A stretch of DNA of 64,000 nt from Escherichia coli (GTDB taxonomy: Bacteria; Pseudomonadota; Gammaproteobacteria; Enterobacterales; Enterobacteriaceae). Below the pieces are notes generated by a model. It did no database searches. It worked only from the letters and a program-made list of their open reading frames with translations, and was not told where the DNA came from. The translations under genes and the position numbers were made by a program. The stretch lies in assembly GCF_029227855.1 (NCBI RefSeq), contig NZ_CP074356.1; one strand, written 5' to 3'. Each line of letters opens with the position of its first letter. Positions within the stretch are counted from its first letter, which is position 1. Below, piece by piece: positions 5 through 1,882 of the stretch.

Positions 5-1882
5 TTGCTGATCACCACCTTAATGCGCCTGACGCTCAACGTTGCTTCTACGCGCGTGGTGTTGCTGCACGGGCATCTCGGCGCGGGCGCGGCGGGTAAG
101 GTGATTGAGTCATTTGGTCAGGTGGTGATTGGCGGCAACTTTGTCGTCGGCTTCGTGGTGTTTATCATCCTGATGATCATCAACTTTATCGTCGTCACCA
201 AAGGGGCCGAGCGTATTTCCGAGGTTTCTGCCCGCTTTACCTTAGACGCGATGCCTGGCAAACAGATGGCGATTGACGCCGATCTTAACGCCGGGTTGAT
301 CAACCAGGCGCAGGCGCAAACCCGGCGCAAAGATGTTGCCAGCGAGGCCGATTTCTACGGCGCGATGGACGGGGCATCGAAGTTTGTGCGCGGGGATGCC
401 ATCGCCGGGATGATGATTCTGGCGATCAACCTGATCGGCGGCGTCTGTATCGGGATCTTCAAATACAACCTGAGCGCCGACGCCGCCTTCCAGCAGTATG
501 TACTGATGACCATCGGCGACGGGCTGGTGGCGCAGATCCCTTCTCTGCTGCTCTCCACCGCAGCGGCGATTATCGTCACCCGCGTCAGCGACAACGGCGA
601 TATCGCCCATGATGTGCGCCACCAGCTGCTGGCAAGCCCGTCGGTGCTCTACACCGCCACCGGGATCATGTTTGTGCTGGCGGTTGTGCCGGGGATGCCG
701 CATCTGCCGTTTTTGCTGTTCAGCGCCCTGCTTGGTTTTACCGGCTGGCGGATGAGCAAACGCCCGCAGGTGGCGGAGGCGGAAGAGAAAAGCCTCGAAA
801 CACTGACCCGAACCATCACCGAAACCAGCGAGCAACAGGTCAGTTGGGAAACTATTCCGCTGATCGAGCCCATCAGCTTAAGCCTCGGCTACAAGCTGGT
901 GGCGCTGGTGGACAAAGCACAGGGTAACCCGCTCACCCAGCGGATTCGCGGCGTGCGGCAGGTGATTTCTGACGGCAACGGCGTGCTGCTGCCGGAGATC
1001 CGCATTCGGGAAAACTTCCGCCTCAAGCCCAGCCAGTACGCCATTTTCATCAATGGCATTAAGGCTGATGAAGCGGATATTCCGGCGGATAAACTGATGG
1101 CCCTGCCCTCCAGCGAAACCTACGGCGAGATTGACGGCGTGCTGGGGAACGACCCGGCGTACGGGATGCCGGTGACCTGGATCCAGCCCGCGCAGAAAGC
1201 GAAGGCGCTGAATATGGGGTATCAGGTGATCGACAGCGCCAGCGTGATTGCCACCCATGTGAACAAGATTGTCCGCAGCTATATTCCTGATTTGTTTAAC
1301 TATGATGACATCACGCAGTTGCATAACCGTTTGTCGTCGATGGCACCGCGCCTGGCGGAAGATTTGAGCGCGGCGCTCAATTACAGCCAATTGCTGAAAG
1401 TGTACCGGGCGCTGCTGACCGAAGGCGTTTCCCTGCGCGATATTGTCACCATCGCCACCGTGCTGGTCGCCAGTAGTGCGGTGACCAAAGATCATATTCT
1501 GCTGGCGGCAGATGTGCGCCTGGCGCTGAGGCGCAGCATTACCCATCCGTTCGTTCGCAAGCAGGAGCTGACGGTGTATACGCTGAATAATGAGCTGGAA
1601 AATCTGCTGACCAACGTAGTGAATCAAGCGCAACAGGCCGGCAAAGTGATGCTCGACAGTGTGCCGGTGGACCCGAATATGCTTAACCAGTTCCAGAGCA
1701 CGATGCCGCAGGTAAAAGAGCAGATGAAAGCGGCGGGGAAAGACCCGGTGCTGCTGGTGCCGCCGCAACTGCATCCATTGCTGGCGCGCTATGCAAGGTT
1801 GTTTGCGCCGGGGCTGCATGTGCTGTCGTATAACGAAGTGCCGGATGAGCTGGAGTTGAAGATTATGGGGGCGCTGAGTTGA
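5..1882 (+). CDS. lfhA: FlhA-family flagellar export protein (Flag-2 LfhA), 5' end cut by window edge
   Basis: 625-aa ORF running from the window start; translation matches FlhA from about residue 78 on (LNVASTR..GKVIE..FVVGF..MPGKQMAIDADLNAG). Confidence 0.85.
   Translation: MLITTLMRLTLNVASTRVVLLHGHLGAGAAGKVIESFGQVVIGGNFVVGFVVFIILMIINFIVVTKGAERISEVSARFTLDAMPGKQMAIDADLNAGLINQAQAQTRRKDVASEADFYGAMDGASKFVRGDAIAGMMILAINLIGGVCIGIFKYNLSADAAFQQYVLMTIGDGLVAQIPSLLLSTAAAIIVTRVSDNGDIAHDVRHQLLASPSVLYTATGIMFVLAVVPGMPHLPFLLFSALLGFTGWRMSKRPQVAEAEEKSLETLTRTITETSEQQVSWETIPLIEPISLSLGYKLVALVDKAQGNPLTQRIRGVRQVISDGNGVLLPEIRIRENFRLKPSQYAIFINGIKADEADIPADKLMALPSSETYGEIDGVLGNDPAYGMPVTWIQPAQKAKALNMGYQVIDSASVIATHVNKIVRSYIPDLFNYDDITQLHNRLSSMAPRLAEDLSAALNYSQLLKVYRALLTEGVSLRDIVTIATVLVASSAVTKDHILLAADVRLALRRSITHPFVRKQELTVYTLNNELENLLTNVVNQAQQAGKVMLDSVPVDPNMLNQFQSTMPQVKEQMKAAGKDPVLLVPPQLHPLLARYARLFAPGLHVLSYNEVPDELELKIMGALS

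Follow-up and report, generated by a model that had tools for sequence, protein, structure and literature searches.

An lfhA gene without the K-12-type deletion in Escherichia coli, and the Flag-2 cluster found upstream of it in near-identical relatives

The lfhA reading frame and its surroundings

The stretch of DNA analysed here, a 64,000-nt segment of E. coli contig NZ_CP074356.1 that we refer to as the window, opens inside lfhA, the paralogue of flhA that belongs to Flag-2, the second, lateral-type flagellar system of E. coli. Translation yields a single plus-strand ORF of 626 sense codons closed by TGA and open at the 5′ edge (Table 1). A preliminary description had counted 625 lfhA codons in a frame still open at the window edge; this is the figure of the mechanical ORF list, which starts its count at an internal TTG (5..1882, 625 aa), and reading from position 2 gives 626. 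Codons 1–71 fall outside the window, which holds the 3′ 90% of the gene. The product matches the Pfam family FHIPEP (PF00771) with E = 4.3e-219 and 729.7 bits, above the gathering cut-off of 29.1 bits, over profile positions 47–656 of 657; the start of the profile is absent from the match because the 5′ part of lfhA lies outside the window. As an FHIPEP-family gene the frame is far beyond chance, and its predicted product is an FlhA-family protein, of which the first ~70 residues are encoded beyond the window edge.

The gene occupies the chromosomal site between yafL and dinB: the window continues downstream with yafL, dpaA, yafJ, lpcA and fadE, in agreement with K-12 and E. coli 042. Directly after lfhA comes an orphan hicB antitoxin gene, without hicA (window 1883–2314). 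The lfhA–yafL intergenic site is a small variable hotspot, which carries hicA–hicB in many strains, rayT in K-12, 042 and GF60, and nothing in CFIAFB20140388 and MEW.

The nearest genome, that of E. coli JNEC-KY178 (NZ_AP045174.1), is 99.95% identical to the window across the full 64 kb, the two differing by 23 substitutions and 3 indels. Further along, window 9801–40760 holds a large type VI secretion cluster (tssB to a second hcp); ahead of it come ISAs1 and transposase remnants, an Rhs core protein followed by a small ORF, and copies of vgrG and hcp. Four clustered substitutions relative to JNEC-KY178 fall in the Rhs gene (14830–14845), a 6-bp indel falls in tssH at 31142, and several further differences cluster in the 23S rRNA gene (53555–55219). 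An exact look-up of the window's TssC variant returned no record. A 77-nt identical direct repeat (42605–42681 and 51539–51615) is annotated as two tRNA-Asp genes in JNEC-KY178, and its second copy follows an rRNA operon.

Table 1. Features of the lfhA locus in the window
Feature	Position	Strand	Basis or remark
lfhA (Flag-2 paralogue of flhA), codons 72–697 and TGA stop	2..1882	+	Translation, Pfam, match to 042 LfhA
lfhA codons 72–131, lost in K-12 and the other deletion strains examined	2..181	+	lafU-antisense sequence in their place in K-12, L005 and L006
K-12-type deletion junction site	179..181	+	ATC common to the lfhA and lafU sides (3-bp microhomology); the window reads through
lfhA codons 132–697 and stop, homologous to the K-12 lfhA (fhiA) remnant	182..1882	+	95.4% identity to K-12 248363–250070
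T for C, LfhA A328V, in the linker between membrane and cytoplasmic domains	771	+	Unique to the window among roughly a dozen related sequences
Orphan hicB antitoxin gene, outside Flag-2, marking the outer boundary of the locus	1961..2314	+	Pfam HicB E = 1.6e-10; annotated in JNEC-KY178

The K-12 remnant and the deletion junction

The preliminary description had given the K-12 lfhA pseudogene as a 5′-deleted fragment of 579 aa, and the mechanical ORF of MG1655 is indeed of that length (L002 5359..7098, minus strand), so that the doubt it had raised about this figure falls away. Residues 1–12 of this ORF (MLSRSDLLTLLT) come from the antisense of the lafU remnant, and only 566–567 of its codons are therefore derived from lfhA. 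In the RefSeq annotation the K-12 lfhA pseudogene spans 248358–250070 (1713 nt) and directly abuts the lafU pseudogene. K-12 keeps lfhA codons 132–697 and is without codons 1–131.

We placed the junction by a three-way comparison of the K-12 junction, window 120–220 and the lafU side of JNEC-KY178. Homology between the window and K-12 lfhA starts at window 182, or at 179 if the shared ATC is counted; the 60 codons before it (window 2–181, LfhA residues 72–131) have therefore been lost from K-12. The K-12 junction is shared, in a multiple alignment, by four further deletion-type strains (L005, L006, L020 and L021), all of which diverge at window 179–182, and the Flag-2-positive genomes L003 and L004 match the window without a difference across 1–241. 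A K-12-type fusion joining lfhA at about codon 132 to antisense lafU was looked for in the window and is absent. Comparison with K-12 lfhA and with a Flag-2-positive strain, which had been proposed as a check, thus shows the window reading through the K-12 junction, and 042 matching window 1–700 over its full length with 98.0% identity. Rather than running into a lafU remnant as in K-12, positions 1–181 are lfhA sequence identical to that of L003 and L004, and the earlier suggestion that this strain retains sequence missing from K-12 is borne out for the 60 codons in question.

At the protein level, the window LfhA is identical to residues 72–697 of 042 LfhA at 621 of 626 positions (99%), the 042 gene being 2094 nt long and its protein 697 aa. 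Differences between lfhA alleles are mostly synonymous (39 synonymous and 5 non-synonymous against L004). A full-length LfhA with V328 was sought by exact look-up, and no record was found. In the lfhA remnants of the Flag-2-deleted strains (L002, L005, L006, L020 and L021), the part corresponding to window 182–1882 has no internal stop codon and its changes fall mainly at third codon positions (for K-12, 65 synonymous and 11 non-synonymous codons); these remnants have neither a promoter nor a start codon, yet show a synonymous excess.

The truncated form is the common one. The 3′ part of lfhA is matched in 5383 of 5426 complete E. coli genomes, and about 76% of these 5383 carry remnants; 1290 (23.8%) have both lfhB and the 5′ part of lfhA, an equal number span the junction in window 1–700, and 1289 of the 1290 genomes with the lfhA 5′ end have the full lfhB. 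The 24% junction-spanning share agrees with the published survey, in which Flag-2 was present in 24 of 100 E. coli strains and the other 76 all had truncated copies of lfhA and lafU (PMC6993521); K-12 and B keep only fhiA and mbhA (PMC3032704). The presence or absence of Flag-2 is thus an already known polymorphism, ordinary in E. coli.

The lfhA/lafU flanks of this lineage are mosaic with respect to every strain tried. Apart from the SNP at 771, window 182–1476 shows no difference from the remnant carried by the deleted strains L005 and L006; window 1477–1885 is ~6% different from all six sequences first compared, and for 1477–2370, with the orphan hicB, the best matches (99.6%, then 98.5%) are other deleted strains. 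A crossover no more than 60 bp away from the junction was considered and rejected as evidence, since nearly the same haplotype is found over window 1–700 in other Flag-2-positive genomes, namely Z1323HEC0462 and NY1601 (99.6%) and AST215 (99.0%), so that L003 and L004 simply differ in the patch 242–626. A counterpart of the breakpoint was looked for on the lafU side, and none was found. We regard it as improbable that DNA was exchanged between this lineage and deletion-type strains as far as the junction, or that Flag-2 was regained through homologous recombination into a background of the deletion type. Were this true, presence and absence of the cluster would be reversible rather than a one-way loss.

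Gene content and state of the Flag-2 locus in the nearest relatives

Over window 1–2400, JNEC-KY178 (from 3989847) differs from the window by one mismatch, at window 771, and A328V is accordingly the sole difference between the two LfhA proteins. In JNEC-KY178, lfhA is annotated as a 697-aa FlhA (3989635–3991728) that begins 212 nt before window position 1. Upstream of it follow lfhB, lfiRQPNM, lafK, lfiEFGHIJ, three cargo genes, lfgNMABCDEFGHIJKL and lafWZABCDEFSTU, and then dinB. Scored against the 39-gene conserved Flag-2 list of De Maayer et al. (PMC6993521), JNEC-KY178 has 39/39 genes directly upstream, including the Flag-2-specific lafK, lafW and lafZ, with 37,298 bp (37.3 kb) separating the lafU stop from the lfhA stop.

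Ten further contigs encoding the JNEC-KY178 LfhA, from assemblies and public sequencing runs, were read by exact look-up. Of the six among them that were listed, five reach past lfhA on its upstream side, each with Flag-2 genes there; the remaining one starts just ahead of lfhA. Codons 1–71 of lfhA are intact in JNEC-KY178 and in contigs from other samples encoding the same LfhA. Where relatives were compared, up to 10 kb upstream, they match JNEC-KY178 with at most one single-base indel. The preliminary description had proposed that a Flag-2 cluster may sit just outside the window, and the near-identical relatives (JNEC-KY178 and the five contigs) support it indirectly: from their gene content we infer that other Flag-2 genes would stand immediately upstream of the window.

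Two lesions were found in this clone. The first is in lfhB, which is annotated as frameshifted in JNEC-KY178; the cause is one missing C in GTGGTGG[C]GAAAGG (L001 46378, corresponding to JNEC-KY178 3989377), at a distance of 469 nt before the window begins. Three of six relatives carry this 1-bp deletion (JNEC-KY178 and two contigs from public sequencing runs), and the other three have an intact 379-aa gene. A sequencing artefact was considered as the origin of the frameshift and rejected, given the non-homopolymer context and the recurrence of the same deletion in JNEC-KY178 and two other contigs; the frameshift is a real polymorphism within the clone. The second lesion is in lafU, where codon 33 reads TGA instead of TGG (W33 stop; L001 12257, corresponding to JNEC-KY178 3955256) in all five copies examined, those of JNEC-KY178 and of four sequencing-run contigs. 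A GTG stands at lafU codon 35, three bases after the stop, and reinitiation there may give a 273-aa LafU in which the transmembrane helix is retained together with its Asp and the N-terminal cytoplasmic tail is missing. Since such a product would keep the transmembrane helix, loss of lafU function is likely but not certain.

The Flag-2 cluster, structurally complete in the clone, may thus not be fully functional, and the locus appears to be in early decay. Published work has demonstrated no function for Flag-2 in E. coli (PMC3032704), and 042 carries a frameshift in lfgC (PMC3032704, PMC6993521). Upstream beyond Flag-2, prfH and rtcB-family genes beside yafP are truncated or frameshifted remnants in JNEC-KY178 (L001 8299–8853); the same arrangement is seen in the deleted strain 18KM2445, and both genes are intact in GF60.

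Interpretation and comparison with known flagellar systems

We consider it very probable that the window carries an intact lfhA in a Flag-2-positive strain without the K-12-type deletion, with a cluster of about 37 kb upstream that ends at lafU by dinB. This explanation is built on the open frame, its family assignment, the orthology with 042 LfhA, a sequence free of the K-12 junction and the genes that the relatives carry, all of them direct observations; the same upstream content in the source strain itself, and the mechanism of the protein, we infer by extension. The strain would be one of the roughly 24% in E. coli in which the lfhA–lafU deletion never took place, and other Flag-2 genes would for that reason lie immediately upstream of the window.

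Frequency speaks for a K-12-type lfhA remnant, in which Flag-2 would be deleted and the window preceded directly by a remnant of lafU: most genomes carrying the 3′ part of the gene are of this kind. Its probability here is nevertheless negligible: the junction lies at 179–182 in every deletion strain examined (K-12, L005, L006, L020 and L021), and the window has 181 nt of genuine lfhA 5′ of that point, identical to Flag-2-positive strains. Very unlikely, too, is a full-length lfhA next to a cluster that is partly deleted, interrupted by an IS element or prophage, or otherwise incomplete in the source strain. Such loci exist, in that one or more conserved genes are missing from 22% of enterobacterial flag-2 loci and insertions of transposases are frequent (PMC6993521), and the source genome is not identical to JNEC-KY178, from which it is separated by the substitutions and indels given above. 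Against an incomplete cluster stand the full set of conserved genes in that nearest genome, the near-perfect match of relatives up to 10 kb upstream, and the almost invariable co-occurrence of full lfhB with the lfhA 5′ end.

A different matter is whether Flag-2 in the source strain is complete and functional, building lateral flagella under some condition, which we think doubtful. The conserved key residues of LfhA (see below), the excess of synonymous over non-synonymous differences, the intact lfhB of some clone members and the 273-aa LafU that reinitiation at GTG35 would give all favour function. The lafU W33 stop in all five clone sequences examined and the lfhB deletion in half of the six relatives speak against it, as does the fact that no Flag-2 system has been shown to work in E. 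coli, with 042 itself carrying its lfgC frameshift. Our preferred reading, a Flag-2-positive strain with an intact lfhA, bears directly on annotation, in that the window should be labelled accordingly and not as holding a K-12-like fhiA pseudogene. It also presents the clone as a structurally complete Flag-2 cluster that is gaining point lesions, with the lafU nonsense mutation in every copy examined and the lfhB frameshift still polymorphic, and these lesions fit the published view that Flag-2 is dispensable and decaying in E. coli.

The most likely role of LfhA is that of export gate in the flagellar type III secretion apparatus of Flag-2. Against the NCBIfam FlhA equivalog TIGR01398 the full-length relative reaches 768.4 bits, 3.7 bits below the 772.1 cut-off; this equivalog is nonetheless its top family, about 190 bits over the SctV family TIGR01399, and the gene context in the relatives is entirely flagellar. 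The best match among solved structures is full-length nonameric FlhA (PDB 7amy, E = 3.6e-266). In an alignment with K-12 FlhA, the residues corresponding to R147, R154, D158, K203, D208, D456 and T490, which we take to be functional residues from Salmonella FlhA genetics, are conserved in LfhA, and F459 is replaced by Y. By homology, LfhA would form a nonameric ring whose membrane domain would use the proton-motive force and whose cytoplasmic domain would dock chaperone–substrate complexes, leading to export of rod, hook and filament proteins.

Both the primary FlhA of E. coli and Salmonella and the FlhA of Vibrio parahaemolyticus share the FHIPEP family and the length of LfhA, and the charged residues of the FlhA membrane domain and cytoplasmic loop, together with the chaperone-binding residues, are also kept. 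LfhA scores 888 bits against V. parahaemolyticus FlhA (PDB 7amy) and 574 bits against the Salmonella/E. coli-type FlhA, as expected of a lateral-flagella-type paralogue; its identity to the primary FlhA of K-12 (b1879) is 44%, and LfhA is therefore a distinct paralogue.

Among E. coli loci, the K-12 lfhA pseudogene (fhiA, b0229) agrees with window 182–1882 in frame and stop position at 95.4% DNA identity; unlike the window, it is without codons 1–131 and a promoter, and is joined to antisense lafU through a 3-bp microhomology. Another counterpart is found in E. coli 042, from which Flag-2 was first reported (Ren et al. 2005, J Bacteriol 187:1430, as cited in PMC6993521 and PMC3032704). Its lfhA occupies the equivalent chromosomal site, at the end of the Flag-2 cluster that faces yafL, and the two proteins are separated by five amino-acid differences, among them the window-specific A328V. 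The loci differ in the downstream neighbour, which is orphan hicB in the window and rayT in 042, and in the lesions they bear, which in 042 affect lfgC, whereas in the clone to which the window belongs they affect lafU and, in some members, lfhB.
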